From a virus (Duplodnaviria; Caudoviricetes), in IMG/VR virus record IMGVR_UViG_3300017658_000231, positions 1 through 31,288 of that record: a stretch of DNA of 31,288 bases; one strand, written 5' to 3'. Both the position numbers and the translations under genes were made by a program. Each line of letters opens with the position of its first letter. The first letter of the stretch is position 1. Below, one piece after another: positions 2,510 to 29,310 of this stretch. The notes beneath the pieces are model-generated. The model worked only from the letters and a program-made list of their open reading frames with translations. It was not told where the DNA came from and searched no databases.

Positions 2510-2517
2510 CATAACTA
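2510..2517 (+). promoter_or_regulatory. Putative late-promoter box CATAACTA
   Basis: Downstream of a terminator, 8 nt before the HNH ATG, no SD. Confidence 0.5.
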
Positions 2518-2525
2518 CTAACGAT

Positions 2526-2819
2526 ATGGCAGATCGCATCAAGACTTTCAATCCGTTTCCCAAAGCTCAACCGAGCATCCAGCGACGGGAATCCACGAAC
2601 TGGTATCACCGATCTCGCTGGTTGAAACTCCGGCAAACCAAACTGCGGCTCAACCCAGTTTGCGAAAATCCTGAGTGCCAAGCTTGGGAAGACCTGCATG
2701 TTCATCATGTGCTTCCACGAAAGACTCATCCCGAACTTTCATACCAATTGGAGAATCTCAGAACCCTTTGCCGGTCATGTCACAGCAAGGAGGAGGCACG
2801 ATGCAACGAATCAGCATAG
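2526..2819 (+). CDS. HNH endonuclease (packaging-associated, HK97 gp74-like)
   Basis: WY...RWLKLR, CENPEC, VHHVLP, ENLRTLCRSCHSK; start reassigned to ATG 2526. Confidence 0.9.
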   Translation: MADRIKTFNPFPKAQPSIQRRESTNWYHRSRWLKLRQTKLRLNPVCENPECQAWEDLHVHHVLPRKTHPELSYQLENLRTLCRSCHSKEEARCNESA

Positions 2820-2980
2820 GGAAAGCGGCGAAGCTCTTGTCGGTTCATCCTGACACGCTCAGGAAGTGGGAGCAGCAGGGTTTCCTGCGATCTGTCCGCA
2901 CACTAGGGGGACATCGGCGATACTTACTCACCGATATCGAGACATTGCTCACCAGCGATGAGGAGGAGGCACGATGCAAC
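2788..2980 (+). repeat. 20-bp direct repeat AGGAGGAGGCACGATGCAAC (2788-2807 and 2961-2980)
   Basis: Exact match read directly; each copy holds an SD and an ATG. Confidence 0.9.
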
Positions 2981-2998
2981 CAACAGAAATCAAACTGA
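2801..2998 (+). CDS. MerR-type HTH protein (excisionase/RDF-like)
   Basis: ISIGKAAKLLSVHPDTLRKWEQQG..RTLGGHRRY; strong SD AGGAGG. Confidence 0.85.
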   Translation: MQRISIGKAAKLLSVHPDTLRKWEQQGFLRSVRTLGGHRRYLLTDIETLLTSDEEEARCNQQKSN

Positions 2999-3204
2999 AC
3001 GTCGAGATCGACTTGTCTCAGAAGCAACTCAATCTTGTCCAATACGCAATCAACAAGCACGCATGGTTTCACGCAACAAGACTCATGCAACAAATCCCCA
3101 TGACGATCAGATTATCAGACAAGGAAGCACTAACGATATTTCCATTCAAGGACATCAACACAAAACAATTCTGGAAGCTATTGGGAGTCAAGGAATGCAA
3201 GTAG
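2974..3204 (+). CDS. Hypothetical protein
   Basis: SD AGGAGG, overlaps neighbours in operon fashion. Confidence 0.6.
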   Translation: MQPTEIKLNVEIDLSQKQLNLVQYAINKHAWFHATRLMQQIPMTIRLSDKEALTIFPFKDINTKQFWKLLGVKECK

Positions 3205-3422
3205 GAGATCAAGCGAGATTGAAGTCGGGCGGTCCAGTGATGACCGTCTACGAGATCAAAGAAGACAGGATCAACTGTCAATGGTTCGATGGGGCCAAGC
3301 TCAAACAATCTGACTTCACCAGATTGATGCTTGTGCCCCATCCCCAACCAGACGACCGCATTGACCAACTGGACAGAGAGACAGATGAACTGCTCATGCA
3401 GTTGAAGGAGATTGACTTATGA
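3195..3422 (+). CDS. DUF2158/YodC-family small protein
   Basis: VGDQARLKSGGPVMTV...CQWFDG; start ATG 3195. Confidence 0.8.
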   Translation: MQVGDQARLKSGGPVMTVYEIKEDRINCQWFDGAKLKQSDFTRLMLVPHPQPDDRIDQLDRETDELLMQLKEIDL

Positions 3423-3604
3423 ATCCAGACATGAGTTTTGCAGAGTATGCAGCGATGGAACGAATGTTTGCTGATGACCACTTCAATTGGTTGAGACAAC
3501 GGGAGTTCATGCTTGAACAACAACGGGAGTTCATGCGGATTCTCTCGGAAGATTGTCAGTACAACAATGAAAAACAACACGACTGGAAGCATGAAGGCTT
3601 CTAA
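3419..3604 (+). CDS. Hypothetical protein
   Basis: AAGGAG SD, ATGA overlap with upstream gene, internal QREFM duplication. Confidence 0.55.
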   Translation: MNPDMSFAEYAAMERMFADDHFNWLRQREFMLEQQREFMRILSEDCQYNNEKQHDWKHEGF

Positions 3605-3616
3605 ACAAGGAGATCA

Positions 3617-3796
3617 ATGGAACAACCAAATGAAACAATGACCATCACAAGCATCAGTATCGACAACGAACTACTGGAAACAATCAAGTGGGAAGCGAAG
3701 TGGCGAGGTATCTCACGATCTGAGTTCGTCCGTGATGCCGTCCACGTCTACTTGAAAGCATTGAAGAAGCAAGGGAAAGCTGCACCGGAGAAATAG
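3617..3796 (+). CDS. Ribbon-helix-helix (CopG-like) protein, 59 aa, absent from the ORF track
   Basis: Hand translation MEQPNETMTITSISIDNELLETIKWEAKWRGISRSEFVRDAVHVYLKALKKQGKAAPEK; AAGGAG SD. Confidence 0.8.
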   Translation: MEQPNETMTITSISIDNELLETIKWEAKWRGISRSEFVRDAVHVYLKALKKQGKAAPEK

Positions 3797-3805
3797 ACCG
3801 ATCCC

Positions 3806-3822
3806 GATACAATTTTTGTATT
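3806..3822. promoter_or_regulatory. 17-bp palindrome copy (GATACAATTTTTGTATT)
   Basis: Immediately after the RHH stop codon. Confidence 0.7.
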
Positions 3823-3966
3823 GGCGATGGTCTCCCCAGACGAGCCACGATTGATCCGAGACGGGATCAGTGCCAACCATCGTTCAAGACAATGGAACAC
3901 AACCATGGAGACCGTGGGAGACGTGGGGGCGAGATGGCTGGTCGATGGGCGACCAGCGGGACGCAT

Positions 3967-4036
3967 GGGGGGAGGCGGGTCAAAATCTCACGGAAGGTGG
4001 AAGGACCGGCATCGCCCATGAACGTCAAAAATTCGC
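3967..4036 (+). other. Possible cos/packaging region
   Basis: G-run-GCGGGTCAAAATCTC...GACCGGCATCGCCC...AAAAATTCGC between HNH and terS, resembling cos contexts of HNH-terminase phages; pattern recognition only. Confidence 0.4.
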
Positions 4037-4062
4037 CTGCATTATTGGGCTGAGGGGGACCG

Positions 4063-4836
4063 TTAAGCAGCAAGCAGAGCAGCGACCTGTTCGAGTGTTA
4101 TGCAAATTTCGCCTCCGCCAAGTGCTGGGGGCAAGTTGGAGCATAGCTTTGTGTTCTTGATCGAAGTGAGATCGGACGGATTGAACTCCCCTGACACATT
4201 CGTATTTACGGAGTATAAAATGACTCCGTTCGTCTTGTGGCGGTGTCGAATTTTTACGTCAAATTTGATCTTGCCATCCTTGAACTCAAATTTTTCAATG
4301 GTTGCCTTACCTTCATTTCCTTGCGCAAGTTCACTAGACAGGAACTTCTCAAGAGTGCTTTTCATTGAGTCCATCTTAGTTTGTGATGGAGGTGTCGGAT
4401 TTGGGTTTGGGGTGGTATTAGAATTGGGACTTGGAGGAGGAGGAGCAATAATACTCCAAGTCAATTCATAAAAAGCATCGTCCCTGTCAAAGACACCGAC
4501 GCCATTCGTTGAGTTACTGTTGATGTCAATTTGCCCTAAAAAATCGTGAGCATCCCCAATTGATGGGATGTCATCATCGTAGAGCTTTGCTGTCGCCGAA
4601 TTGTTGAAAGAAAACTTGAAGCTGACGGTCGCTTCATCTCCGTCATTCAGATCGTCGTAGAAGACTTTTACCAGCTTGTCATCTGCGTAAATCATCAATC
4701 TGCATTCATCCGCTCCGGTATAATCCTCAGTTGTTCGGCACTTCAGCTTCTTAATCAGTATATCCGTGGCAGGACTGGATTTCGGCACAACGATCAGTGC
4801 AACAAGAAATACCCATCTCGAAACGTTCGTAATCAT
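4063..4836 (-). CDS. Secreted two-domain moron protein
   Basis: Signal-peptide-like N-terminus, acidic KLYDDD..DAHDFLG (C2-like) domain, Pro-rich linker; opposite strand to late genes. Confidence 0.75.
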   Translation of the reverse strand: MITNVSRWVFLVALIVVPKSSPATDILIKKLKCRTTEDYTGADECRLMIYADDKLVKVFYDDLNDGDEATVSFKFSFNNSATAKLYDDDIPSIGDAHDFLGQIDINSNSTNGVGVFDRDDAFYELTWSIIAPPPPSPNSNTTPNPNPTPPSQTKMDSMKSTLEKFLSSELAQGNEGKATIEKFEFKDGKIKFDVKIRHRHKTNGVILYSVNTNVSGEFNPSDLTSIKNTKLCSNLPPALGGGEICITLEQVAALLAA

Positions 4837-4906
4837 GATTTGGCCCTTTTGAGTTATGACTTAGAAATGTCATTTAGAGAAACCGAAGAGAACGCATCGG
4901 CAGCAG

Positions 4907-4914
4907 CCTATATA
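4907..4914 (+). promoter_or_regulatory. Putative late-promoter box CCTATATA
   Basis: 8 nt before the terS ATG, no SD. Confidence 0.4.
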
Positions 4915-4922
4915 CCACTTGA

Positions 4923-5402
4923 ATGCCCAAAGGTAAACCCCCACGACCGACCAAACTCCAAGTTGCACTCAAAGGCGATCCATCAAATCGTCGAGGCAAT
5001 ACAACTGAACCCGAAGCCCCAAGAGGCTGGCCCGAGTGTCCTGAACATGTTGCCGATGACTTCATCGCTCATGAAGAATGGAGATCAGTCTGTAAGCAAC
5101 TCGACTCGATGGACCTGCTATCCACAACCGACGCCCGTTCCCTTGAACTCTATTGTCTGACGTATTCTCGTTTTCGTGCGGCTCAGGAACAAGTCAAGAA
5201 GCACGGTGATGTTCTGTTTCTTGGCAAGAACAAATACCCACAGGTCTCACCGTTCTATACCTGCATGAACAAATACCATGAGGACTGTCGGAAGTGGTTG
5301 ATCGAATTTGGTCTGACACCTGCCGCTCGTGCCCGCTTGCGAGTGAAGGTTGAAGAAAAATCGAACAACAAATGGAGCGGGATTTTGCCGGTTGCGGGAT
5401 AA
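4923..5402 (+). CDS. terS: Terminase small subunit, P27 family
   Basis: GKPPRPTKLQVALKGDP..R, LELYC..Y, EFGLTPAARARL. Confidence 0.92.
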   Translation: MPKGKPPRPTKLQVALKGDPSNRRGNTTEPEAPRGWPECPEHVADDFIAHEEWRSVCKQLDSMDLLSTTDARSLELYCLTYSRFRAAQEQVKKHGDVLFLGKNKYPQVSPFYTCMNKYHEDCRKWLIEFGLTPAARARLRVKVEEKSNNKWSGILPVAG

Positions 5403-5407
5403 AGCTT

Positions 5408-5548
5408 TTAGAAGAAATAATTCCAGATGTCGCAAATTTTCTTAATTGTAGACAGTATGAGGTTCAAGAATCGAACCCCATAAAACCACTTCTGCATTGG
5501 CTTCTTCGTAGTTTTCGTAGTCGATTTTTTCTTGGCTTTTGTGGTCAT
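5408..5548 (-). CDS. Small basic/amphipathic peptide (46 aa), absent from the ORF track
   Basis: Hand translation MTTKAKKKSTTKTTKKPMQKWFYGVRFLNLILSTIKKICDIWNYFF; own promoter upstream; stop lies 5 nt from the terS stop. Confidence 0.65.
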   Translation of the reverse strand: MTTKAKKKSTTKTTKKPMQKWFYGVRFLNLILSTIKKICDIWNYFF

Positions 5549-5560
5549 TTTCCCATCCGT

Positions 5561-5615
5561 GAAAAACAAAAAAACCCCGTTAGGAGTTTCCTTTGAGTGA
5601 AACTCCTAACGGGGT
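5561..5615 (-). terminator. Leader terminator/attenuator hairpin
   Basis: Perfect 17-bp stem (5574-5590 with 5599-5615), followed on the minus strand by TTTTTTGTTTTTC. Confidence 0.75.
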
Positions 5616-5640
5616 CGGTTGTTCCGTTTCCGTGCAGGTG

Positions 5641-5669
5641 ATCGTAGGCAACCTAAACCATATCGTCAA
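5641..5669 (-). promoter_or_regulatory. Sigma70-type promoter TTGACG-17-TACGAT
   Basis: Near-consensus hexamers with exact 17-nt spacer. Confidence 0.7.
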
Positions 5670-5687
5670 GAAAAAATCGGAAGTTTC

Positions 5688-5695
5688 CATAACTA
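5688..5695 (+). promoter_or_regulatory. Putative late-promoter box CATAACTA
   Basis: 4 nt before GTG 5700 of terL. Confidence 0.55.
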
Positions 5696-5699
5696 CCAT

Positions 5700-7256
5700 G
5701 TGGAACTTTCAGACAAATCAATCCAGTTCATCGAGAACCTGACTCTCATTGGCGACCATGCCGGTAAGCCTTTTGTGCTTCGACCATTTCAGAAGCAGAT
5801 TCTCAACGCTCTGTTTCGTACACGAGACGGCGAGCGGATCGTCTCGAAGATGTTCCTGCTGTTGCCACGCAAGAACGGAAAATCTCAAATCGCAGCGGCA
5901 ATCTGCCTCTTCTCATTGCTCTGCCTCGGTCAGAGCCAACAGATTCTCAGTGCGGCAGCGACACAGGAACAGGCATCCCGAATCTTCGATGCCATGTGTG
6001 AGATGATCCGTGCTGATGCAACCCTCAGCAAACTCTGCGAGATCATCCCAAGTAAACATCGGATCGTCTGCGAAGCCACCAACAGCTTCTACTGTGCAGT
6101 CACTTCTGGCGGCGATGCCCTCTTGGGTTATTCGCCTACTCTGGTTGTTCTGGACGAATTGGAAGCGTTCACTCAGCCAAAACATCGACGACTCCATGCC
6201 GCTCTGACAACAGGGTTCGGAGCCAGAGCAAACCCTCTAACAATTCTGATCTCCACTCAAACGAGCGATAAGAATTCGTTGGCAAATGAGGAGTTCGAAT
6301 TTTCAAGAAATTTGAAGGGAAGAATCGAAAATTCGAAGGTGAAGAGATCAGGTCAGTATCAGAACGAGAAGTATCTGGCTTGTCTTTATTTTGCCGATGA
6401 GAAAGCAGACTGGACGGATCGAAAAGTCTGGAAGGCGGTCAATCCTGCATTGGGGGACTATCTGAATGAAGACTTCCTTGAGGAAGAGTTCAAGATCGCC
6501 CAGAAAATTCCATCACGCCAGAATCATTTCAAGCAATTCTATCTCAATGTTCCCATCGATTCGCTTGGGAAATGGATGGACATGAGTTTGTGGAACTCAT
6601 GCAAAGGGACATCACCTGATCTCACCCCGTACAAGTGTTGGGGCGGTCTTGATCTTGCTCCGGTCAATGATCTCTCAGCGTTCGTGCTGTTGTTCGACGT
6701 GGAAGGAATCTATCACGTCAAGTCATGGTTCTGGTGTCCAGAAGCAGACATCATGGAGCGTAGCAAAATCTCGCAAGTTCCCTACGACTATTGGAAGGAT
6801 CAAGGGCATCTGCGAGTCTGCTCAGGTTCATCGACAGACTTCCGCCAAGTCAGAAAAGAGATCGCTGAGATTTGCGAGCAGTATCGTTTGCAAACTATCG
6901 CTGCGGATAGGTCATTTGCTTACGACGTGGCACAAGGTCTGATTGAAGACGGTTTCAATGTGGAGTGGTATCGGCCCGGATATGAAAGCATGTCCCGCCC
7001 AACCATGAGGTTGGAAAAACTGGTCAAGGATTCCGAGATCATTCACACGGGACAACCCGTGATGGACTACTGCATGTCCAATGTCGTTTGTGAAAGTGAC
7101 GCCGCTGGGAATGTCAGACCATCCAATAAACTCCGCAGAAAGCAGGACAAGATCGATGGGGCGATCAGCCTGATTTATGCTTTGGGAGTTGCGATGTGGG
7201 ATCAGCCAAAAGTGCAGCCAAGTGTTTACGAGACAAGAGGCATATTTTGCGTCTAG
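5700..7256 (+). CDS. terL: Terminase large subunit
   Basis: Walker A PRKNGKS, Walker B VVLDE, nuclease GGLDLA and KIDGA; start probably GTG 5700. Confidence 0.95.
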   Translation: MELSDKSIQFIENLTLIGDHAGKPFVLRPFQKQILNALFRTRDGERIVSKMFLLLPRKNGKSQIAAAICLFSLLCLGQSQQILSAAATQEQASRIFDAMCEMIRADATLSKLCEIIPSKHRIVCEATNSFYCAVTSGGDALLGYSPTLVVLDELEAFTQPKHRRLHAALTTGFGARANPLTILISTQTSDKNSLANEEFEFSRNLKGRIENSKVKRSGQYQNEKYLACLYFADEKADWTDRKVWKAVNPALGDYLNEDFLEEEFKIAQKIPSRQNHFKQFYLNVPIDSLGKWMDMSLWNSCKGTSPDLTPYKCWGGLDLAPVNDLSAFVLLFDVEGIYHVKSWFWCPEADIMERSKISQVPYDYWKDQGHLRVCSGSSTDFRQVRKEIAEICEQYRLQTIAADRSFAYDVAQGLIEDGFNVEWYRPGYESMSRPTMRLEKLVKDSEIIHTGQPVMDYCMSNVVCESDAAGNVRPSNKLRRKQDKIDGAISLIYALGVAMWDQPKVQPSVYETRGIFCV

Positions 7257-7258
7257 GA

Positions 7259-7266
7259 CATACATA
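7259..7266 (+). promoter_or_regulatory. Putative late-promoter box CATACATA
   Basis: 4 nt before the portal ATG. Confidence 0.55.
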
Positions 7267-7270
7267 ACGT

Positions 7271-8917
7271 ATGTTCAAAAACTGGTTCACAAAGAAGTCA
7301 CAAAAGCCTGAAACCTATTCCTCAACTCCGCTCGACGAGTTGATGCGGTTGCAAGCTAATTCTGCTGCTGGCGTGGCGGTCACGGAAACAACCGCACTCA
7401 ATCTTGTCTCCGTCTACGCTTGTGTTCGTGCCATCGCTGAAACATTGGCGTCCATCAGCTTTCCGGTCTATGAGCGACTGGATGGCGGCGGCAAGGGAAG
7501 ACTTCGAGATCATCCGGTTTATCGCCTGCTCAATGTCTCACCGGATGACGAGATTTCTGCGATGCAGTGGCGTGAGAGTGGCATCGGACATTTGCTCACT
7601 TGGGGAAACTGGTACAACGAGATTGAATTCTCCAATGGCGGCGAAGTTCTTGCGGTTCATCTGCTCAATCCAAAAATTGTAACGCCACGAAGAACGAAAT
7701 CAGGACGGATCGAATACAAGCTGGACGGAGTTATTACGCCAATTCCAGCCGAACGAATGCTTCACGTTGCAGGTCTTGGCTACGACGGTTGCGTCGGTTA
7801 TTCACCATGTCGCATGGGCAAGTCAGCAATCTCGCTGGGAATTGCTGCGGAACGCTTCGGGCAAACATGGTTCGGCAATGGAAGTCGAGGACAAGGCTAT
7901 ATCACTCATCCGGGCACTTTGTCAGATCAGGCGAAAGCGAACATCCGAGCGAGCATCGAAGCTGAACATGCCGGACCAGATCAGGCTCATCGCTGGATGA
8001 TTTTTGAGGAGGGAATCCAAGTCGAACAACTGGGAGTTCCACCGGAAGATGCTCAGTTCCTTGCCACGAGATTATTCCAATTGCAGGAAATTTGTCGTCT
8101 CTATCGGATCAGTCCAGCACTCGTTGGCGATCTATCACGCTCGACTTTTTCCAATCAAGAACAGGAGTCCATCAATTTTGTTGTTCACACATTGAGACCG
8201 TGGTGTCGCCGAATAGAAACCCAGATCAATCAACGTCTTTTCAGTCGTGTTGAGCAGGAAACGATCTTCGCCGAGCATCTCTTGGATGGCTTGCTCCGTG
8301 GAGATCAGCAGACCAGATACGCAGCTTATGCAACGGGTCGTCAATGGGGCTGGTTGTCTGCCGATGACATCAACGAACTTGAAAATCGAAATCCGCTACC
8401 TGATGGTCAGGGTAAAGTTTACTTGATACCGCTCAACTTTCAGGACTCCCGAAACCTCATCAAGACCGAACAGCCGACACCAGAACAGCCAGTAGTTCCC
8501 ACGACTCCATCTGACGCAGCGGTCACTGCTTCTCTTGATTGTGTTCAGGACAATATCGACAGGATGTTACGGCGGGAATCGGAAGCCGTCAGGAAAGCAG
8601 CGACCAAGCCCAATGAATTTCTGGACGCTGTTGAGGAGTTCTATTCCTCGTATTCCAAAATTTGTAATCGGGCACTCGAACCCAGCCTGAAAGCATTCGC
8701 TGCCATCAAAGCAGATCAGTTCTCCGATCCAATGCAAAAATTGGATTGTGTCCAGCAGGTGATGGCGGCAACCAGCAACCTTGTTGAATCCGGCAGAAAA
8801 TCCCTGCTTGATCTCTCTGGAACGGTCTCAGCCAAAGACCTGCCCCAAGCGATTGAGAAATGGACCATCGACAGAGCCACGGTCTCTAAGGAAATCATAA
8901 AGGAGATAAGACAATGA
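7271..8917 (+). CDS. Portal protein, HK97 family, with C-terminal extension
   Basis: VYACVRAIAE, HLLTWGNWY, GYSP, DAQFLATR, EICRLYRI, TLRPW, NELENRNP. Confidence 0.95.
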   Translation: MFKNWFTKKSQKPETYSSTPLDELMRLQANSAAGVAVTETTALNLVSVYACVRAIAETLASISFPVYERLDGGGKGRLRDHPVYRLLNVSPDDEISAMQWRESGIGHLLTWGNWYNEIEFSNGGEVLAVHLLNPKIVTPRRTKSGRIEYKLDGVITPIPAERMLHVAGLGYDGCVGYSPCRMGKSAISLGIAAERFGQTWFGNGSRGQGYITHPGTLSDQAKANIRASIEAEHAGPDQAHRWMIFEEGIQVEQLGVPPEDAQFLATRLFQLQEICRLYRISPALVGDLSRSTFSNQEQESINFVVHTLRPWCRRIETQINQRLFSRVEQETIFAEHLLDGLLRGDQQTRYAAYATGRQWGWLSADDINELENRNPLPDGQGKVYLIPLNFQDSRNLIKTEQPTPEQPVVPTTPSDAAVTASLDCVQDNIDRMLRRESEAVRKAATKPNEFLDAVEEFYSSYSKICNRALEPSLKAFAAIKADQFSDPMQKLDCVQQVMAATSNLVESGRKSLLDLSGTVSAKDLPQAIEKWTIDRATVSKEIIKEIRQ

Positions 8918-9525
8918 ACCAAAACATAGAACGATATTTCACAACAAGTCAAATTGAATTCAACAACCCAGACGAGGGAAGCAAATCCGCAGGACGATTG
9001 AGCGGATATGTCACCCGCTGGAACACCTTGTCTCACGATAGAGGCGGTTACAAGGATGTCTTCCGTCCCGATGCCTTCGCCAATCTGGTTGATCCAGATG
9101 CGGACGTGAAGGCGTATCAGGACCACAACTATTCGATCTATCTTGGAAGAACATCCAATCAATCATTGAAACTTTCGATGGATGCTGAGGGCGTCAGGTT
9201 CTCTCTTGACCTGCCGGACACGCAACATGGCAGAGACACCGCTGCCCTGATGTCCCGCAATGATTTCAACGGGATGAGCTTCGGCTATCTCCCCGACAAA
9301 TACCAACTGGTCAGAACACCGGAGGGAATTGTCAGGGAACATACGAGCGGCACACTCATTGAGGTCTCAGTTGTCTTCGACCCAGCCTTTGAGAATTCAT
9401 CTGTTGAACTCAATGCACTGGATGAACCACCGGAAGAAGTCCTGCAAGAGATCAGGGAATTTCTGGCGACACCAAAACTCAATTCTGCCAAGAGAAAATT
9501 GGAACTCGCCAGCATAGATAACTGA
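8914..9525 (+). CDS. Prohead protease, HK97 family
   Basis: LSGY, DHN..YLGRT, GMSFGY, LIEVSVV.DPAF. Confidence 0.92.
   Translation: MNQNIERYFTTSQIEFNNPDEGSKSAGRLSGYVTRWNTLSHDRGGYKDVFRPDAFANLVDPDADVKAYQDHNYSIYLGRTSNQSLKLSMDAEGVRFSLDLPDTQHGRDTAALMSRNDFNGMSFGYLPDKYQLVRTPEGIVREHTSGTLIEVSVVFDPAFENSSVELNALDEPPEEVLQEIREFLATPKLNSAKRKLELASIDN
9513..9520 (+). promoter_or_regulatory. Putative late-promoter box CATAGATA upstream of capsid leader
   Basis: Same octamer as at 11490 and 19596. Confidence 0.4.
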
Positions 9526-9570
9526 GAAATTGATTAGCGTTTAATCAACTCTCTCAAATATCTGGAATAA

Positions 9571-9641
9571 GACGGCGAACTGTCAGCACTCTGGATCAAT
9601 ACAACTTTTGTATCGACCCGCCGACAGTTCGTCGTTTTTTT
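9571..9641 (+). promoter_or_regulatory. Long hairpin with U-tract carrying palindrome copy 9598-9614
   Basis: 9571-9587 pairs with 9620-9636 (two GU, one mismatch); apical AATACAACTTTTGTATC. Confidence 0.6.
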
Positions 9642-9661
9642 GTTGGGTCACTTGGAGGAAG

Positions 9662-10948: not shown

Positions 10949-11015
10949 AAGTTTGGTGATGGTCCTCGACCCATCGCCTTGAACTGACCAGCACCATGTC
11001 TGTCTGGTCTCGTTG

Positions 11016-11054
11016 CAAAGGGGTGATCTCGTCTCAGATCACCCCTTTGTTTTT
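11016..11054 (+). terminator. Intrinsic terminator after capsid gene
   Basis: 14-bp perfect stem CAAAGGGGTGATCT/AGATCACCCCTTTG followed by TTTTT. Confidence 0.85.
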
Positions 11055-11057
11055 CAC

Positions 11058-11074: not shown

Positions 11075-11080
11075 GGTTTC

Positions 11081-11088: not shown

Positions 11089-11092
11089 TCAC

Positions 11093-21796: not shown

Positions 21797-21799
21797 TTC

Positions 21800-21816
21800 G
21801 ACACAAAAATTGTATT
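21800..21816. promoter_or_regulatory. 17-bp palindrome copy (GACACAAAAATTGTATT)
   Basis: Upstream of the sigma-like gene. Confidence 0.65.
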
Positions 21817-21823
21817 GGCAACC

Positions 21824-21831
21824 CTTACCTA
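21824..21831 (+). promoter_or_regulatory. Putative late-promoter box CTTACCTA
   Basis: 4 nt before ATG 21836, no SD. Confidence 0.4.
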
Positions 21832-21835
21832 TTGT

Positions 21836-22285
21836 ATGTGGATATCCAAGACCGAACTGGCAAACGAAATCAACCTGATGACAGTCTCAGGACGGGCATC
21901 GGAACGTCTTGGCAGAATGTTGCTGCTGATCGCAGATGGTGCGGCAAGGAGATATGCAACGGGTTTGGAGCATGATGAGGCGGTCGCAAGTGCGGTCTGT
22001 CATCTGTTGGGCGTGATCGACAGATACGATCCCCACAAGTCTGATGCGTTCTCCTACGTCACCACCATCTGTATCAATCGCTTCCTGCACATGAGGCGTG
22101 AAGTGAGATTTCGCAACGCCCTGCTGGCACATGTCAGATACGAGATGGGCGGCGAGGACTTTCGACCCGAAATTCCAAAATACAAAAATTGCATTGGTTG
22201 CGGGAAAGAAAAACCGGCGTCTGCATTCGGGCAGGATTTCATTCGTGGGTTGGCGAACAAATGCAAAAATTGTAATCGGCGGTGA
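21836..22285 (+). CDS. T4 gp55-like minimal sigma factor (region 2) with C-terminal CxxC..CxxC zinc finger
   Basis: WISKTEL, ERLGRMLLLIA, DEAVASAV, IDRYDPHKSDAFSYVTTICINRFL match the gp55-family pattern as recalled; CIGC...CKNC. Confidence 0.7.
   Translation: MWISKTELANEINLMTVSGRASERLGRMLLLIADGAARRYATGLEHDEAVASAVCHLLGVIDRYDPHKSDAFSYVTTICINRFLHMRREVRFRNALLAHVRYEMGGEDFRPEIPKYKNCIGCGKEKPASAFGQDFIRGLANKCKNCNRR
22179..22276. promoter_or_regulatory. Two palindrome copies inside the sigma gene (22179-22195, 22260-22276)
   Basis: AATACAAAAATTGCATT and AATGCAAAAATTGTAAT. Confidence 0.55.
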
Positions 22286-22433
22286 TCTGTGCTTTACAGC
22301 ACGACTTTATTCTCAAAATCTTTCCAGATTTATCTGCCTCAAATCGTCATCAATCACGGCAACTTTGCCCAAAGATCGCACCGTTTAACGATCTGGAATC
22401 AAAGATCGTGGAAATCCGCAAAGTAGCAAAAAT

Positions 22434-22462
22434 TTGACGCATAAAATCGAGATAGATAAAAT
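22434..22462 (+). promoter_or_regulatory. Sigma70-type promoter TTGACG-17-TAAAAT
   Basis: Near-consensus hexamers with exact 17-nt spacer. Confidence 0.75.
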
Positions 22463-22469
22463 CCGTATC

Positions 22470-22555
22470 GGTATAGTTGGAAGCGTAAACGAATCAGCAC
22501 GGCGACCGCCTCTCCCAAGCTTTCAACTACAACGGGGAGAGGCGGTCATTTTTTT
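22470..22555 (+). ncRNA. Putative ~85-nt sRNA/attenuator leader
   Basis: Promoter, 13-bp stem (22504-22516 with 22535-22547) and T7; 5' segment complementary to the terminator loop. Confidence 0.55.
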
Positions 22556-22638
22556 GGACATAAAATTGAAAGCATAAAAACAAATAGGGTCTCACCCCAA
22601 AATAAATTGAAAGTGAAACCCTATTATATGTCAGTCCA

Positions 22639-24507
22639 ATGACAAAGTATAATAGACTACATCCTGACAAAAAATGCAAGAAGAATTCTGAGTCCCAGAT
22701 GACTCAGGATTTGTCTTGGCTTTTCTTCGTCGGTCAAGGCGACAAGTATCTCGGCTTCCATTTTGCCGACCGCACGCTTCAACCAGATGGGTCTTGGAAG
22801 CCAGTCACGAAAAAATACGACTATGAGCTAAAACGATGGATCGCCGAATACGATCATCCAGAACACTGGACCGTCGAAAAATCTCACTCTCACTGGCGAT
22901 GCTCCTCACTTCTCTCACATATACAAGGCAAGCATAGAGGACTCGTTGCAACTGATGATAGTGGTTGCACTGATGTCCCCTTCATTGCATCTGATCTTGA
23001 CCGCCATCACAACGAGCCAGCCAAACAACACATTGAAAGAGTGATACGCACCCTCAGAGCTTGTATCAGATTGTATCCACATCTCAGATGGCTTGCGGAA
23101 GTAAACAACAAAAATGGATCAACCAAGCTGTATGGCATCAGTCACAAGGGTATCCCGATTTGCAGAGCCAAAGAGATGGCGAAGGAACTGTACCAAGTAG
23201 TCGTCCAGATCACGGGCAACCCGAAGACCGAAGTGTTCCCGCACAATATGACGCAAATCCTGCTGCCATGCCGTGCGGACAAAACAACTATCATCGACAC
23301 TGGCATATTGGGCAAGGTCCAACGATACAAAGTTCTCAACGGCAAGCGAGTCTATTACGACGCTTACTCAATGATTGATCTGAGTGATTGGATGAATGGG
23401 CATGAGCAATGTGATGAAATCACATTGAAGCAAGTTTTGGAGAATGTCTGCAAGTGCCCGATAAAAGATATTGCGGATGTCAAATACAATAAACCTGTCA
23501 ATCGTCTTGAGGAGTTGAGAAACGAAGCCTACTTGGAAGCGATGGGATTGAGAGATGTTGATATCGAGGCTAACGCCTCGATATCAAATGCCCCCGCTGG
23601 GGGCATAAAATGTGGCTTGGAGCCTGACGGCGTGTCTTCTCGCACTTCCTTAAATGATATTAGATCGACCGCCAACGCTTTCGACCGCAAGCGTTTGTTC
23701 ACCCAATGGCTTTCACGTCAACTGAGACGTGTACCCACTCTTGAGGAAGTCCTGTCTGCATACAAGTCATACAAGATGTATGGTGGTTCGTGGGACGACA
23801 ATCTGGGCAAGAGACGATCCGATTTTGTGCAGATCATTAAGTATGTGGAGAAATCATTTAATTCCGAGTTATGCGGTCAAGGCAAGTCAGATCGCCCCGA
23901 GTTGAACAAAGAGGTGATGAAATGGCGTGGTCGCATGACAGCACATTTCATGCTGGGTAAGACCTTCTCTGTCATCATCAACCAAACTGTCAGATACGAT
24001 GAGTATGGAAGCCGCATTGTCTCAGGTGGCAAACGACGTTACGTCAATGGTCAGCACATATCGTATGTAATGGGAATCGCCGCCTATGTCATGCTGACAT
24101 CCAAGCTTGGAGACGGAAGTATCAGACGGAAATCAATACAAGGCTGGTGGGAGGATTTAGCGAAAGAAGGCAAACTTCCAGCTTGGTCGGTTGATTATTG
24201 GTTGGCATGTCGGCAAGTCCTTGAAGACATTGGCTGGATTGTTGTCGATGATACATATTCTCACAGAGAGCATCGATCCAAAACAGCAGAAATTACATAT
24301 ACGGATCAGCCATTGGTTGGGACTATCTACCTGTTCCCCATCACGACATATAATTACCCCCCCACCTCTATAATGGTGGTGACGCATTCGTCACCTGAAA
24401 AATCGGGATCAACCGACAAAACATCCCCGAGACCACCACCACGAGGACAACCGCCGCCGATTGTGCGGTTCACGCCATCAAAACAGGAACAAAACTCATG
24501 GAACTGA
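22639..24507 (+). CDS. Large hypothetical protein, possible replication initiator (AEP/primase-like N-terminus)
   Basis: FIASDLDRH (hhhDhD-like); position after an early promoter; start could be 22699. Confidence 0.5.
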   Translation: MTKYNRLHPDKKCKKNSESQMTQDLSWLFFVGQGDKYLGFHFADRTLQPDGSWKPVTKKYDYELKRWIAEYDHPEHWTVEKSHSHWRCSSLLSHIQGKHRGLVATDDSGCTDVPFIASDLDRHHNEPAKQHIERVIRTLRACIRLYPHLRWLAEVNNKNGSTKLYGISHKGIPICRAKEMAKELYQVVVQITGNPKTEVFPHNMTQILLPCRADKTTIIDTGILGKVQRYKVLNGKRVYYDAYSMIDLSDWMNGHEQCDEITLKQVLENVCKCPIKDIADVKYNKPVNRLEELRNEAYLEAMGLRDVDIEANASISNAPAGGIKCGLEPDGVSSRTSLNDIRSTANAFDRKRLFTQWLSRQLRRVPTLEEVLSAYKSYKMYGGSWDDNLGKRRSDFVQIIKYVEKSFNSELCGQGKSDRPELNKEVMKWRGRMTAHFMLGKTFSVIINQTVRYDEYGSRIVSGGKRRYVNGQHISYVMGIAAYVMLTSKLGDGSIRRKSIQGWWEDLAKEGKLPAWSVDYWLACRQVLEDIGWIVVDDTYSHREHRSKTAEITYTDQPLVGTIYLFPITTYNYPPTSIMVVTHSSPEKSGSTDKTSPRPPPRGQPPPIVRFTPSKQEQNSWN

Positions 24508-24535
24508 CCACTGAGAACGTGAAAGGTATGGACTC

Positions 24536-24552
24536 AATACAATTTTTGCACT
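24536..24552. promoter_or_regulatory. 17-bp palindrome copy (AATACAATTTTTGCACT)
   Basis: Abuts AAGGA SD of gene 24566. Confidence 0.65.
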
Positions 24553-24565
24553 CAAGGAAGACAAA

Positions 24566-25015
24566 ATGAAAACGAACGACAATCAAAATCGACCAGATCA
24601 CTCGGACAAAGACATGCTACACGAGATTATTCCTAACAATTCCTTACGGGAGAAAGTTGGTTATATCGTCGCCGAACTTTATCTCAAACGACATGGCGTT
24701 AAGCCCTTAAAGCGAGAATGGAACGGGATGACAGTCAACATTATCCCGAACACCGATCACGACTTGATCTGGATTGCCCTCACCCAACTCAAGAAAACTC
24801 AAGAGAAGCAAGGCGAGGAGAACAGGCTGTTGAAACAACGAGCCATCGACCTACACAATAAGAAACATCCAAGCGACGAGATCACAAAGCAAACGATGCA
24901 CGATGGCATTATACGGTTGTTTTCTCAAGGACGCCGAGTCGGAAGCTACAAGCCAGTTGAAACCAAAACCGGCAGTATATTGATTGCGGTCAAGGAAGAA
25001 GAAGCCACACAATGA
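24566..25015 (+). CDS. Hypothetical protein
   Basis: SD AAGGA; operon context. Confidence 0.65.
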   Translation: MKTNDNQNRPDHSDKDMLHEIIPNNSLREKVGYIVAELYLKRHGVKPLKREWNGMTVNIIPNTDHDLIWIALTQLKKTQEKQGEENRLLKQRAIDLHNKKHPSDEITKQTMHDGIIRLFSQGRRVGSYKPVETKTGSILIAVKEEEATQ

Positions 25016-25221
25016 AAGTCCCATTTGAAGAACCACGGAAGGTTGAGAACTGGTTGCCGTCACTCGATGAAGAGTTCAAGGCAATGTTCCAAGAAACCTC
25101 ATACAAGGAGATGCCCCAACTACAAAGGAAACCACACAATGAAAATCACATTTGGAAAACACAAAGGAGAAGAACTCCACACGATACCCAAGAACTATCT
25201 CAACTGGTTGCGAACGATTGA
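25012..25221 (+). CDS. Hypothetical protein
   Basis: ATGA overlap with upstream gene, but overlaps the next gene by about 80 nt. Confidence 0.35.
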   Translation: MKVPFEEPRKVENWLPSLDEEFKAMFQETSYKEMPQLQRKPHNENHIWKTQRRRTPHDTQELSQLVAND

Positions 25222-25381
25222 TCTCGACGACCACTTGAGACGAGCGGTTGATCTCGCTTTGGAAGGCAAAGAATACAAAGCACCAACCAGACGAGAACGG
25301 ATCGACGAAGCCAGAGAAGACATGATGTCACGGCTGAGGGAACGAGATGCAGGACGCACTCTATTTCGAGTCGTGGCATAG
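25139..25381 (+). CDS. DUF3820-like small protein
   Basis: MKITFGKHKGEELHTIPKNYLNWL; AAAGGA SD before ATG 25139. Confidence 0.8.
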   Translation: MKITFGKHKGEELHTIPKNYLNWLRTIDLDDHLRRAVDLALEGKEYKAPTRRERIDEAREDMMSRLRERDAGRTLFRVVA

Positions 25382-25384
25382 ACA

Positions 25385-25401
25385 AATACAATTTTTGTAA
25401 T
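25385..25401. promoter_or_regulatory. 17-bp palindrome copy (AATACAATTTTTGTAAT)
   Basis: Abuts AAGGA SD of gene 25416. Confidence 0.65.
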
Positions 25402-25415
25402 CAAGGATGAGAACA

Positions 25416-26030
25416 ATGAACATAACAACAAGCAATCTACTGGAACACGACAACCTGTTCCGACTCCGCATCATGTGCGTCGAGTTCTTTCTCAGAGCCA
25501 CGGATGGCAAAACGTATAACCGCCGACCGCCTATTGCCCTGAGACTTCCCTGCGGTGATCTGACATTCGTGGTGAAGCCAACAACGACCCATCGAAGCAA
25601 CGTAGTCACGGTTGATGATCGTGGAGTCATCATCGAGTGCATCCACAACAACAAGAAGAAAGGAGTTGTCTTGTTGATCGAAGGAAGAGCAAGATATCTG
25701 AGATCGTGGAAAGACCAAGACCGCAATATCTCTGAGTTGTCAGCACTCGTTGAACTGGCGGAACAGTTTCGGCTCGATCCCTTTGCGGTGATGAAGCAGA
25801 ACCCCAACCATTGTTGCTGTTGTGGCAAGGCTCTGACGGATGCGGTCTCAAGAGCAAGGGGTATTGGTCCTGAGTGTCTCGGCAATTTCTCGGAAGTATT
25901 CGGAACGACGAGGGAGCCAGTAAAACTCACGAAGCAGGACTACAAAAGAAAGATGATTCAAAATCATCCAGACATGGGCGGCGATCCCGAAGAGTTCAAG
26001 AAGTGGTCAGCACTCTACCACGCCTGTTGA
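25416..26030 (+). CDS. DUF6011-like zinc-binding protein with C-terminal J-domain-like (HPD) segment
   Basis: CCCCGKALTDAVSRARGIGPEC; YKRKMIQNHPDMGGDPEEF. Confidence 0.75.
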   Translation: MNITTSNLLEHDNLFRLRIMCVEFFLRATDGKTYNRRPPIALRLPCGDLTFVVKPTTTHRSNVVTVDDRGVIIECIHNNKKKGVVLLIEGRARYLRSWKDQDRNISELSALVELAEQFRLDPFAVMKQNPNHCCCCGKALTDAVSRARGIGPECLGNFSEVFGTTREPVKLTKQDYKRKMIQNHPDMGGDPEEFKKWSALYHAC

Positions 26031-26047
26031 GGCAGGGACAAAATGAG

Positions 26048-26080
26048 ACCGCACTCCAAACAACGGAGTGCGGTTTTCTT
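26048..26080 (+). terminator. Terminator between convergent genes
   Basis: ACCGCACTCC/GGAGTGCGGT followed by TTTCTT. Confidence 0.7.
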
Positions 26081-26096
26081 CATACCAATTGGAGTA

Positions 26097-26879
26097 TCAC
26101 AAACACTCGCTCAACCGGCGATTTCCAAGAGCAGCGAATTCCGAGACGATCTCGAAGCCGAGATAGTGCCGTCCCTGCAACGACGCCATTTTGAGTGTCG
26201 TCCCGCTACCGGCAAACGGGTCGAAGACCAGATTACCCTGACCGCTCCAAGTGTAGATCAGATCACGAGCCAGCTTTTCTGGCATGATTGCCGGATGACC
26301 AGCACGAACATACTTCTCGGAAGCATTGTCAGTTCCAGTGTGATACTTCCAGATCGGTCCTCGAATCCGAAATTCTGGGATTTCTGCCGGTTCGCTCCGC
26401 TCCCTGAAATCGTCACGTCGATAGTTTGTGAAGCTTTTGTAATCGCCGAAACACTTGTTGGGAATGTCCTTGATGAGATTGATGGTTCTCGGTCTTCCCT
26501 TGCTCAGAACATACACTCGCTGAGGTGAAGGATACTGCTTCATTTTGCCGTTGTTCCCATTGTTGATGTCGAGGAACAACGTCTTGTGACAACTGAACCC
26601 AATCTCATCAACAAAGTGGATTAACTGTCTTCGAGATGTCAGAGATTCAGCAAAGTCCTTGACCTGTTCGCCCACATGCCAGCAGACAACACCACCAGCA
26701 CAAGTGATCCGATACAGTTCAGCGGCAACAATGCAGAACATTTCCCAAGAAAGACGATTCCCCTTGAACGTTCTCATCCTGTCCCACGGTGGCGAAGTCA
26801 CGGTCAGATGAACACAACCATCTGGCATCGACTGCATTCCAGAAACACAATCCGAACAAATTAACTGGTTGATTTGCAT
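26097..26879 (-). CDS. DNA N4-cytosine/N6-adenine methyltransferase, beta class
   Basis: VTSPPW (motif IV) precedes HPA and VFDPFAGSGTT (motif I). Confidence 0.9.
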   Translation of the reverse strand: MQINQLICSDCVSGMQSMPDGCVHLTVTSPPWDRMRTFKGNRLSWEMFCIVAAELYRITCAGGVVCWHVGEQVKDFAESLTSRRQLIHFVDEIGFSCHKTLFLDINNGNNGKMKQYPSPQRVYVLSKGRPRTINLIKDIPNKCFGDYKSFTNYRRDDFRERSEPAEIPEFRIRGPIWKYHTGTDNASEKYVRAGHPAIMPEKLARDLIYTWSGQGNLVFDPFAGSGTTLKMASLQGRHYLGFEIVSEFAALGNRRLSECL

Positions 26880-26899
26880 AGCAAAGAAATCCTTGATGG

Positions 26900-26937
26900 A
26901 AGAAGAAAGAGAATCGGGGGCAGAATTGCCCCCGATT
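26900..26937 (-). terminator. Terminator-like hairpin upstream of the methyltransferase
   Basis: Perfect 11-bp stem AATCGGGGGCA/TGCCCCCGATT, pyrimidine tail on the minus strand. Confidence 0.55.
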
Positions 26938-26954
26938 ACAAAAGCTGGTACGGA

Positions 26955-27539
26955 TCAAGCCGCCACGGCAAAGACCAGTTTCGATCTGAGATCGTCCAGT
27001 TTGCTCTGGATCAATTCCAACTGTTCCCGAGCAGCACCATGCTCATCTGGATCAATCACGATCCCAGATAACAACTGGACGACTTGCACCAGCTTCCCAA
27101 CTCCCGTCAGTTTGATCTCTGGTTCAGATTGTTCTTCTTCACCATTGCCCAGCACATGTTCTGCCGTCTGACGAATCAGCTTGGCGGTGATGGGTTGGGG
27201 AACGTGAGACACAAGGTCAAGGACCGCCTGCCAAACTTTCTTCTGCGGTTCAGCATGTCTCAGTCGGACCAGTTCTCTTGTTTGTCCTTCACATGTCGGC
27301 AGCACCTTGAAATCAGCAAGGTTCATCAAGGCTCGTGCTGCATTCTTGTACCTGCTGACATCGGCTTGATTCATTCCGAATTCGACTTCGCAAAACCCAA
27401 CCAGAGACTTGTGAGATGTCTTCCAGAGTTTTCGTCTGTCGATCTCATAGATGGCGTTCGCCGTCTGGAAGAAAGCCTGTTGTCCTTTCTTGATGATGGT
27501 GAGGAGTTGTTCGTCTGTCTTCCTTGAAAAGTCACTCAT
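26955..27539 (-). CDS. Hypothetical phage/mobile-element protein
   Basis: AFFQTANAIYEIDRRKLWKTSH...FC..EFG, LPTCEGQTREL, VWQ; GGAG SD before ATG 27539. Confidence 0.7.
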   Translation of the reverse strand: MSDFSRKTDEQLLTIIKKGQQAFFQTANAIYEIDRRKLWKTSHKSLVGFCEVEFGMNQADVSRYKNAARALMNLADFKVLPTCEGQTRELVRLRHAEPQKKVWQAVLDLVSHVPQPITAKLIRQTAEHVLGNGEEEQSEPEIKLTGVGKLVQVVQLLSGIVIDPDEHGAAREQLELIQSKLDDLRSKLVFAVAA

Positions 27540-27706
27540 GGTCTTCTCCAAATTTTGGAGTTGCTTCCGACCTGCTTCCTCGCTTGAGGAGGCAAAAAAA
27601 GTCGTCTGCTCATAAGAACCTGCGGATCGCCCCATCTGGTCAAAACTGGTCAAAACTTTTATTCTGCTCTGAAAACATCAGGTCTCAGCATTCAGTGGTG
27701 AGCGTC

Positions 27707-28405
27707 ATGGATCGTGAAGTTTTCAGAGACAACCTGCGGCGACTGGCGGCAGCACAAGGACTCGACTTCGATGGCTTGGCAATCAAGATCGGTCTCATCG
27801 ATGCAGATAAGAAATGGTTGCGACGACTCTGGAACGATGGGCTGCAGGCGATCAACAAACGAAGATCAAACCAATTGGAAAATCTCGCTGCTCATCTCCG
27901 TCTTCCCTCAATCGATCAGTTGTGGCAAACGAACACCGGCAAACGTGAGGAGATCGAAAAACTCGCAACCAGAGCTTTCGATGTCATCAGGCAGATAGAC
28001 AAACTGAGATCGTTCTTCCCTGACGAGATGAGAACAATCGCCAGCGAGTTTCGCAGCGAGCGAGCATTCGTGGCCGAGTGGATTTGTGACGATTACGGCT
28101 TGGCTCAGTCATCACAAATCAAAGAAGTGCGAGAACGAATCAGAGTCTTGACAGCGGAACGTGAAGATGACTCAGATGTGAGCGAGATTATCGAAGCCCT
28201 CCAAGCCAATGTCAAAGAGTGGGATTATTGGTTGTGGAGCATTGGAGGCGAAAAGATGGCGAAGCATCTCATCAAGGAACAGTGGCGAGACGCCGTTCTC
28301 CAAGCAGAGAAAACAGACATGCCATTGACTCCTGATCTTTTCGCTAAGGTATTCCGGCAGCGACATTTTCCAGACATGGGAGAAAAATTTGTCGCTGAAT
28401 CCTAG
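27707..28405 (+). CDS. XRE-like HTH protein (candidate repressor)
   Basis: FRDNLRRLAAAQGL...LAIKIG...LENLAAHLRL.IDQLW; divergent from gene 27539. Confidence 0.55.
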   Translation: MDREVFRDNLRRLAAAQGLDFDGLAIKIGLIDADKKWLRRLWNDGLQAINKRRSNQLENLAAHLRLPSIDQLWQTNTGKREEIEKLATRAFDVIRQIDKLRSFFPDEMRTIASEFRSERAFVAEWICDDYGLAQSSQIKEVRERIRVLTAEREDDSDVSEIIEALQANVKEWDYWLWSIGGEKMAKHLIKEQWRDAVLQAEKTDMPLTPDLFAKVFRQRHFPDMGEKFVAES

Positions 28406-28454
28406 CATTGCAATAAGAACTGATATTCGACACACCTGAGTAGGACCGGGCAGA

Positions 28455-29291
28455 ATGACAAAACTTCGAATAGTTGGACTAAGTTTCCTAACAGTCGTAA
28501 TTTTTGCGGTGTTTGCCGCCTTACCGTTCACCGTTCCAGAAAGAATTACTGGACTGAAGCCGAATGAGTTCGGGGATGCTTTTGGTTCCGTCAATGCTTT
28601 CATGTCGTTTCTGGCATTCGTTGGGGTGTTAGTCACGTTGGCGATGCAGCGTGAAGAACTGGAACTTCAGCGAAATGAAATGCGAGAGAGCAAAGAGGAA
28701 TTGAAGCGAAGTGCAGATGCTCAGAAGGAAATGATTGAAATGCAACTGTGCAATTCCTATTTGCACGGATTATCCACATTGGTTCAACATGACGACATGG
28801 TTAAAAGCTCTCCAGTGCTGCGAGAGCAACCCAGTGAGACATTTCAAGATGTAAACGGTCTCCGACATTTAATGCAAAGGATCGAAGAAGATGTGCATCG
28901 TATTCTTTTCCGCCGTCCCGTGAATGTCGAAGAAGTTTCCTATGGACTGTATAAGGTTGTGGATTTATTTGAAAGTGACATGAAATCGGATGTTTTACCA
29001 GATGTGTGGGAGACAATGGATGAGATTTATGGAAGAATCGCTCGAATGGTTCCGGCACTGAAAGAAAGCGATGATCCTAGAGGAAAACGGTTGGCCAGCA
29101 TAATTTATGGTCCATTCTTTATGCTCAAGCATACTCTGCAAAGCTATCTAGAAGGTTCTTCGGAGATCGAGGTCGATGAAATATGGGAACGACACGAAAA
29201 GCTTCGTCGTGAATTAGAGGTTCTCAACTCGCAATACCCGCCTTCTGACTCTTTGAAATCACAATACCCGCTTCCAGATGACGAAAAATGA
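28455..29291 (+). CDS. Two-TM membrane protein with N-terminus resembling putative abortive-infection (putAbiC-like) proteins
   Basis: NEFGDAFGSVNAFMSFLAFVGVLVTLAMQREELELQR coiled coil. Confidence 0.6.
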   Translation: MTKLRIVGLSFLTVVIFAVFAALPFTVPERITGLKPNEFGDAFGSVNAFMSFLAFVGVLVTLAMQREELELQRNEMRESKEELKRSADAQKEMIEMQLCNSYLHGLSTLVQHDDMVKSSPVLREQPSETFQDVNGLRHLMQRIEEDVHRILFRRPVNVEEVSYGLYKVVDLFESDMKSDVLPDVWETMDEIYGRIARMVPALKESDDPRGKRLASIIYGPFFMLKHTLQSYLEGSSEIEVDEIWERHEKLRRELEVLNSQYPPSDSLKSQYPLPDDEK

Positions 29292-29302
29292 TCTCTCTGC
29301 TG

Positions 29303-29310
29303 ACTAACTA
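29303..29310 (+). promoter_or_regulatory. Putative late-promoter box ACTAACTA in hairpin loop
   Basis: 5 nt before ATG 29316; stem TGCTGA/TCAGCA. Confidence 0.5.

Follow-up and report, generated by a model that had tools for sequence, protein, structure and literature searches.

A conserved hexamer before the late genes of a Planctomycetaceae prophage family as the probable core of a leaderless promoter

Introduction

How are the late genes of a temperate phage switched on when a short box of sequence stands directly before the start codons of many of them? The question is raised by IMG/VR record IMGVR_UViG_3300017658_000231, of which positions 1..31,288 (31,288 nucleotides (nt), one strand; hereafter the window) were analysed and which, judging by its sequence, is an HK97-type prophage of Planctomycetaceae. 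A preliminary description of this DNA reported an octamer resembling the late promoters of phage T4, mostly 4–5 nt before starts without a Shine–Dalgarno (SD) word, and proposed that a gp55-like sigma factor encoded at 21836 uses it to start leaderless mRNAs gene by gene. We consider here whether the box is a promoter and which protein would read it. The unit analysed is the hexamer TAnMTA (M = A or C), and hexamer coordinates give its first base.

The box and its conservation

Starts of 40 window genes were picked from open reading frame (ORF) and homology evidence. The pattern TA..TA lies 4–5 nt before 9 of them, compared with 4 of 2120 other offsets in the same upstream regions (binomial P = 3.8e-14, or 1e-9 when corrected for the choice of pattern); a shuffle control gave at most 4 in 2000 shuffles. 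All 13 copies previously listed were recovered in the sequence at their places and spacings (Table 1). They include two copies with longer leaders, at 9515 and 13328, which have positional counterparts in related prophages (G002:C19, G219 and L008 for the capsid copy; G002:C19, G004:C32 and G004:C5 for the major-tail copy). The box thus stood, but the octamer did not: its first two positions vary, and the invariant unit is the hexamer. Across the window and its relatives there are 44–46 box sites in total. As these were selected on TA..TA, the informative parts are the M position, which is A or C in 46/46 sites unselected for it (44/44 in the set where it was selected), and the sharp peak in the spacing to the start, with 34 sites at 4 nt, 12 at 5 nt and at most 5 at any other distance.

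An SD-like word precedes one of the nine boxed starts compared with 20 of the 31 unboxed ones (Fisher p = 0.007), in agreement with the earlier remark that boxed genes mostly lack it. Two boxes, as had also been noticed, lie just past terminator-like hairpins, those of the HNH gene (hairpin 2469–2493) and of gene 11093 (hairpin 11017–11048); the latter, a 13-bp stem with a T-run, was recognised by inspection and is not listed by the terminator scan. The motif fixes start codons, for example GTG 5700 rather than TTG 5619 for terL, and the terL orthologues examined with a known start are all boxed, G004:C5 excepted.

Box-bearing related prophages come from six genomes (G001–G005 and G219), and their terL is 26–81% identical to that of the window. 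Boxes precede their terL, portal, protease, adaptor, tape-measure, HNH and ParB-like starts, even at about 30% protein identity. According to the site listings of individual prophage regions, box and SD word can replace each other among orthologues: the protease start has an SD word in the window and a box in G004:C32 and L008, and the tape-measure start has an SD word in the window and a box in G004:C32, G004:C5 and G219.

Host DNA is poor in such sites. The comparison of phage with host starts suggested in the preliminary description gave 17 sites for 101 prophage ORFs and one for 226 host ORFs (280 kb of host G002), and in this lone host case the box falls within the first codons of the ORF. 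Genome-wide, G002 holds 36 matches to box-N4-ATG, and none of the 20 inspected starts a plausible host gene; in 13 small host regions of G004, one box precedes a 224-amino acid (aa) ORF. The box cluster was not found in the more distant terL prophages G113, G157, G017, G211, G137, G236 and G121 (30–33% identity), nor in 10 regions around distant DUF3102-like homologues.

Promoter architecture

The box had been taken for a promoter with a −10 element only. This view is contradicted by a second, A/T-rich element, WWT (W = A or T), which ends 15 nt 5' of the box in 30 of the 46 sites and occurs in only 0–8 sites at offsets two or more away from this peak. The full pattern of WWT and box has 45 sense and 6 antisense matches in 182.5 kb of prophage DNA (8 regions), and 4 matches on both strands of 450 kb of host DNA.

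The initiator rule asks for G at −2, a pyrimidine (Y) at −1 and a purine (R) at +1. With the start codon taken as +1, G stands at −2 in 32/45 boxed and 5/84 SD-led starts, and −1 is a pyrimidine in 38/45 of the former (9/9 in the window) and 42/84 of the latter. In the listed sites with 5-nt spacing, G remains at −2 relative to the ATG, so that this base is tied to the ATG. A template purine adjoining the start site is reported to stabilise initiation (PMC13226041). In several phages, WWT-bearing copies also recur 26–150 nt 5' of the capsid and tail-tube genes, which are SD-led.

Because of the WWT element, the initiator-like G-2/Y-1, the strand bias and the conserved long-leader copies, we consider the box likely to be the core of a promoter with its +1 at the start codon, and the proposal of gene-by-gene leaderless promoters is supported to that extent. 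In the predicted layout, WWT would lie at about −28 to −26 and TAnMTA at −10 to −5, followed by G-2 and Y-1, with the A or G of the start codon as +1. Messages would start leaderless, gene by gene, and the presumably highly expressed capsid and tail-tube genes would use the same promoter plus an SD leader of 26–150 nt. In relatives, terS, terL and portal are set apart by kilobases of inserted genes, some of them in inverted orientation, and a promoter for each gene would account for the tolerance of such foreign, even inverted genes.

Several observations weigh against this interpretation. The P values are optimistic, as sites from related phages share kinship. The A-nnn-T spacing of a sigma-70 −10 element is absent from TAnMTA, and the distance from the last T of the box to the ATG is 6–7 nt, mostly 6, compared with a modal sigma-70 start reported at 7 bp after the −10 element (PMC5730371); because of this misfit, a housekeeping sigma would have to be remodelled. 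Within 120 nt upstream, WWT is the richest binding site seen. The promoter, WWT-N15-TAnMTA-N4/5-start, would be sharply specified and non-canonical, with a register that matches that of sigma-70 as little as that of gp55. No mapped phage promoter for the Planctomycete phylum was found in the literature searched.

Candidate readers of the box

The product of gene 21836 is gp55-like, as first described. It matches the late sigma family phrog_234 (E = 3e-6), its relatives include T4-type gp55 sequences, and its family profile matches T4 gp55 with E = 2.4e-17. The best Foldseek match of its AlphaFold model (predicted local distance difference test (pLDDT) 92.6) in the PDB is gp55, 7d7c_F (TM score 0.59, root mean square deviation (rmsd) 2.3, E = 2.6e-3), and in BFVD the model matches phage sigma factors. 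Aligned with gp55, the protein keeps R57, Y97 and T99, has Y for F86 and differs at N13, L54 and H95; one of the three acidic core-binding residues is kept (E70; not D74 and E77).

The role of this protein as reader of the box fared less well. Six-frame hidden Markov model (HMM) searches run without filters found no gene for sigma region 2 in any related prophage region, the complete prophages G219 and G004:C5 included. Whole-genome searches of the six box-bearing genomes gave no sigma-region-2-only gene, just long host sigmas, and no gp55-like gene of this kind was found among 398 Planctomycetales genomes; the large runs among these searches scored 3–14 first-look candidates per genome (one other run up to 60), and ‘not found’ falls short of proven absence. 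The expected co-occurrence of box and sigma gene in related prophages was therefore not seen: two complete prophages and several partial ones keep the box without such a match, the complete ones retaining 9 and 4 intact sense-strand promoters. In G004:C32 and G002:C19, the slot that separates tail from replication genes is empty or filled otherwise. Close homologues of the sigma-like protein gave no loci in viral contigs, cultured phages gave just weak gp55/HNH matches, and contigs from DNA runs showed no joint that skips the sigma gene. As boxes occur in relatives without a detectable sigma-region-2 gene, and as the adenines flipped by gp55 fall at variable positions, the encoded sigma as reader is not established.

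Another candidate emerges from an all-against-all comparison with alignments, which revealed one non-structural module common to 6/6 box-bearing prophages with the region in hand. It consists of an XRE-type helix–turn–helix (HTH) gene and a divergent DUF3102-like gene, and the W-x-R-R helix motif of the XRE protein is invariant across the six. Among the predicted proteins, the XRE-type one is the best candidate for a family-wide reader. It could equally be the immunity repressor: its gene is located where a cI-like repressor would be, and distant XRE+DUF3102 pairs occur in four regions without a box cluster, in which no virion gene was found. These facts, too, speak against our preferred explanation. 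The XRE protein was also considered as a hidden sigma, and rejected for want of profile similarity.

Weighing the explanations

The high probability that we give to a promoter is divided, in decreasing order, among a family-wide phage factor, the gp55-like protein (in cis or in trans) and a host sigma alone. We tentatively favour the view that the box forms the core of a lytic promoter specific to this prophage family, and that its reader is not the gp55-like protein but host RNA polymerase (RNAP), which a factor common to the whole family would redirect to the boxes. With low confidence, this factor could be the XRE-type HTH protein conserved in the family, which would act near −27 in the manner of the late factor of Thermus phage Lalka27a; the gp55-like protein, found in this phage only, might then be an accessory booster or a competitor for the polymerase core. 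Somewhat less probable, in our estimation, is that the same promoter is read by the gp55-like protein, in cis here, where it would be autoregulated, and in trans for sigma-less, defective or helper-dependent relatives, its zinc ribbon possibly touching the WWT element. The profile and fold matches fit this alternative, as do the kept equivalents of Y97, T99 and R57 and the box before the sigma-like gene itself, which also count against the family-wide factor. The hexamer also equals the last six positions of TATAAATA, with TAAATA variants in relatives; several relatives are decayed (G001:C61, G001:C98, G002:C6) or without a left end (G004:C32, G002:C19), and in G004:C5, with small ORFs partly scanned, no replication gene was recognised. 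It is opposed by the failure to find a sigma-region-2-only gene in the six genomes, by the intact promoters of the two complete prophages and by the loss of two acidic core-binding residues. Moreover, the equivalents of A-12, A-9 and A-8 in the T4 register are A in just 20, 10 and 29 of 44 sites, this register would put the ATG at −1 in 33/44 sites, and T4 late promoters are without upstream conservation (PMC7892883), unlike the WWT-bearing sites described here.

An alternative host sigma, of group 3 or of the extracytoplasmic function (ECF) type, reading the same promoter without any phage factor is improbable. The bipartite layout with its fixed 15-nt spacer would suit such a sigma, no phage sigma would be needed, and these hosts hold many sigma paralogues. 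However, the search for a host regulon gave none: in 3/5 genomes the strict bipartite pattern does not exceed its reversed control, the excess in the other two consists of prophage sites and a coding artefact, a further 20 host matches include 15 within long reading frames, the inspected G002 matches start no plausible host gene, and WWT accompanies 1/52 host intergenic boxes. A host motif matching the bipartite pattern was rejected as a regulon, being coding sequence of pilin-like genes, which we take to be DUF1559-type, at 17/20 loci. Very unlikely, finally, is the view that the box is no promoter and acts at the RNA level as a translation-start signal in place of the SD word, or is a by-product of overlapping stop codons in a long late transcript. 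The box does alternate with the SD word and often overlaps the TAG or TAA of the preceding gene (11492, 13328), but this view is opposed by an upstream element at fixed spacing, by copies 26–150 nt before SD-led genes, by those right past terminators and by those far from any upstream stop (terL, gene 11093), and stop-codon overlap as the sole cause was rejected on these grounds.

Redirection of host RNAP by an XRE-type protein or a sigma acting in trans would each, if true, give temperate phages a late-gene switch of a new kind. The box promoter may also serve as an orthogonal promoter in Planctomycete genetics.

A dispersed palindrome

The window holds 12 copies of the 13-bp palindrome T[AG]CAA-N3-TTG[TC]A, compared with 0.13 expected. 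Relatives hold 18 (G219), 10 (G004:C5), 5 (G004:C32) and 0 (G002:C19) copies, and the strict matches found genome-wide in G219 (12), G004 (3) and G001 (1) are all located in these prophages. The palindrome is also enriched around ten distant DUF3102-like homologues (16 versus 0.7 expected), and G002:C19 and G002:C6, which have a diverged DUF3102-like homologue, carry four copies of a different palindrome.

KorB, Noc and ParB proteins bind dispersed palindromes, and the model of the DUF3102-like protein weakly resembles their DNA-binding domains (Foldseek E 0.2–0.6, Z about 6, below AAA+ lid matches). On account of this resemblance, the protein is a likely binder of the 13-bp palindrome, and the two together form a candidate parS/KorB-like system, similar to the known ones in a ParB-like DNA-binding fold (a weak match) and in having 12–18 dispersed palindromes per element. 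One palindrome overlaps the WWT element of the 11083 box. A role of the palindromes as operators of the box promoters was rejected, as enrichment near promoters is seen in the window only (p = 0.03), and not in G219, G004:C5 and G004:C32 (p 0.22–0.78).

The window phage and its relatives

ORF and family scans place an integrase at 1–1674, followed by HNH, terS, terL, portal, prohead protease, HK97-type capsid, connector and siphovirus-type tail genes; the distal part holds the sigma-like gene, a 622-aa gene without family, two methyltransferases and the ParB-like gene. The nearest terL homologues (71–83% identity) are named Planctomycetaceae or Rubinisphaera brasiliensis, that of R. brasiliensis (P0008) having 71%, and the named genome loci of relatives are mostly Planctomycetaceae metagenome-assembled genomes. 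A 33.8-kb contig, which covers the 20 kb compared and may stem from the source sample, starts about 226 nt before the window and suggests the unit length of the phage. The 622-aa protein (22639–24507) is conserved at 50–54% in relatives and had zero matches in Pfam, PHROG and NCBIfam; it has a DxD motif, which we presume to be reminiscent of primase-polymerases. Long inverted repeats at 5573–5616 (18 pairs, in the terS–terL gap) and 22504–22555 (past the sigma gene) look like strong or bidirectional terminators.

Two of the related prophages are complete: G219, on a closed chromosome, runs from integrase to tRNA-Val, and G004:C5, discovered via the box motif and having the terL with just 26% identity, from integrase to tRNA-Gln. 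The latter (7210–30156, L105–L106) spans 23 kb and carries boxes, palindromes and genes for head and tail; neither a replication gene nor a sigma was recognised in it, its small ORFs being only partly scanned, and it is a satellite-like candidate. Left ends are absent from G004:C32 and G002:C19, and G002:C6 is frameshifted. Internal deletions in G001:C61 (L001/L074) and G001:C98 have fused the distal part of the tail region with protease or terL; capsid and tail genes are gone and boxes are kept. It is conceivable, if unlikely, that full head-and-tail prophages depend on a late promoter of gp55 type which the majority of them cannot read, so that their virion genes would fire when a helper supplies a gp55-like sigma in trans, a ParB-like protein coating each element at its own palindrome. 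If true, the sigma-less prophages would be transcription-level parasites or infection sensors.

Table 1. Boxes, hairpins, candidate regulatory genes and palindromes of the window
Feature	Position	Strand	Hexamer and distance to start	Remarks
Box before HNH gene	2493..2528	+	TAACTA at 2512, 8 nt to ATG	WWT supplied by terminator T-run; 4-nt spacing in orthologues
Box before terS	4890..4925	+	TATATA at 4909, 8 nt to ATG	Without WWT; weakest copy
Box before terL (GTG 5700)	5671..5702	+	TAACTA at 5690, 4 nt	
Box before portal gene	7242..7273	+	TACATA at 7261, 4 nt	WWT
Long-leader copy before major capsid gene	9496..9520	+	TAGATA at 9515	WWT; 141 nt 5' of the SD-led gene
Box before gene 11093	11064..11095	+	TAACTA at 11083, 4 nt	Directly past terminator hairpin
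Box before head–tail adaptor gene Ad1	11473..11504	+	TAGATA at 11492, 4 nt	Overlaps stop codon of preceding gene
Box before tail terminator gene	12914..12946	+	TACATA at 12933, 5 nt	WWT
Long-leader copy before major tail gene	13309..13333	+	TAAATA at 13328	31 nt 5' of the gene
Box before gene 16736	16707..16738	+	TAGATA at 16726, 4 nt	WWT
Box before gene 19608	19579..19610	+	TAGATA at 19598, 4 nt	AAT off by one
Box before sigma-like gene 21836	21807..21838	+	TACCTA at 21826, 4 nt	WWT
Box before ParB-like gene	29286..29318	+	TAACTA at 29305, 5 nt	WWT; kept in G001:C61, G002:C19 and G004:C32
Intrinsic-terminator-like hairpin adjoining HNH box, 5' side	2469..2497 (hairpin 2469–2493)	+		Terminator scan
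Intrinsic-terminator-like hairpin past capsid gene, before 11083 box	11017..11054	+		Sequence reading
gp55-like, sigma-region-2-only protein	21836..22285	+		149 aa; C-terminal four-cysteine zinc ribbon; profiles and predicted fold
DUF3102-like gene, divergent from XRE gene	26955..27539	-		In all six prophages; candidate binder of dispersed palindrome
XRE-type HTH gene	27707..28405	+		Shared by all six box-bearing prophages in which this region was available; candidate reader for the family, or repressor
13-bp palindrome	2449, 3808, 9600, 11060, 12391, 13800, 15279, 20642, 22181, 22262, 24538, 25387			
Near-matches to palindrome	7669, 8654, 21802			

Comparison with known systems

The preliminary description knew of no such design in temperate phages. 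This is contradicted by the Thermus phage Lalka27a, which is able to lysogenise and has 16 dense late promoters and mostly leaderless transcripts; it has a phage-specific −10 word, TAGGGT, with a small upstream element, C at −25, and transcription start sites (TSSs) mapped for half of the promoters, and its authors infer that the phage does not rely on antitermination, that it has no recognisable sigma of its own and that one of its factors modifies host RNAP (10.64898/2026.04.20.719267). Common to both phages are promoter words specific to the phage, which stand in large number before single late genes, 13 of them in the window. They differ in the word, which in Lalka27a follows a TANNNT frame with the TSS 6 nt downstream, whereas TAnMTA, with its invariant A at the sixth base, lies 4–5 nt before the start, and in the upstream element, C at −25 there and WWT near −27 here. 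The pattern TA...T is itself not enriched 6–7 nt before starts here, the window having 0 cases at either distance. The present family further differs in its Planctomycete host and in one member with a gp55-like protein, and its start sites are predicted ones.

In T4, gp55 reads the late promoters together with gp33 and gp45 and flips out A-12, A-9 and A-8 (PMC7892883). The window protein shares the sigma-region-2 fold of gp55 and its Y97, T99 and R57, and the hexamer fits the end of TATAAATA. With variable bases at the flipped adenines and the ATG at −1 in most sites, the resemblance of the box to this sequence is partial. The differences from T4 are a WWT element, which T4 late promoters do not have (PMC7892883), these variable bases, a spacing mostly one nt shorter, a zinc ribbon in place of the gp55 C-terminus and a siphovirus-type HK97 prophage as carrier. 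Here, moreover, promoter and sigma gene do not travel together, the latter not being found in relatives. Among 41 window proteins, many of them from ORFs without family, gp33 and the sliding clamp gp45 gave no Pfam/PHROG match. Words of ATAMATA type 4–5 nt before ATGs, on both strands and nearer to the true T4 register, were seen in the unrelated metagenome contigs L177, L179 and L181.

Leaderless messages are also known from the Thermus phage phiYS40, reportedly a lytic phage. Most of its middle and late mRNAs are leaderless (PMC3594737), a likeness to the messages predicted here, and its host belongs to a different phylum. With the leaderless promoters of the hosts themselves, of TANNNT type, the box is not shared, as the single boxed ORF among 226 indicates. 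Dense leaderless late promoters are thus an already known design, and it is their word, register and host phylum that are new as far as the literature searched shows.

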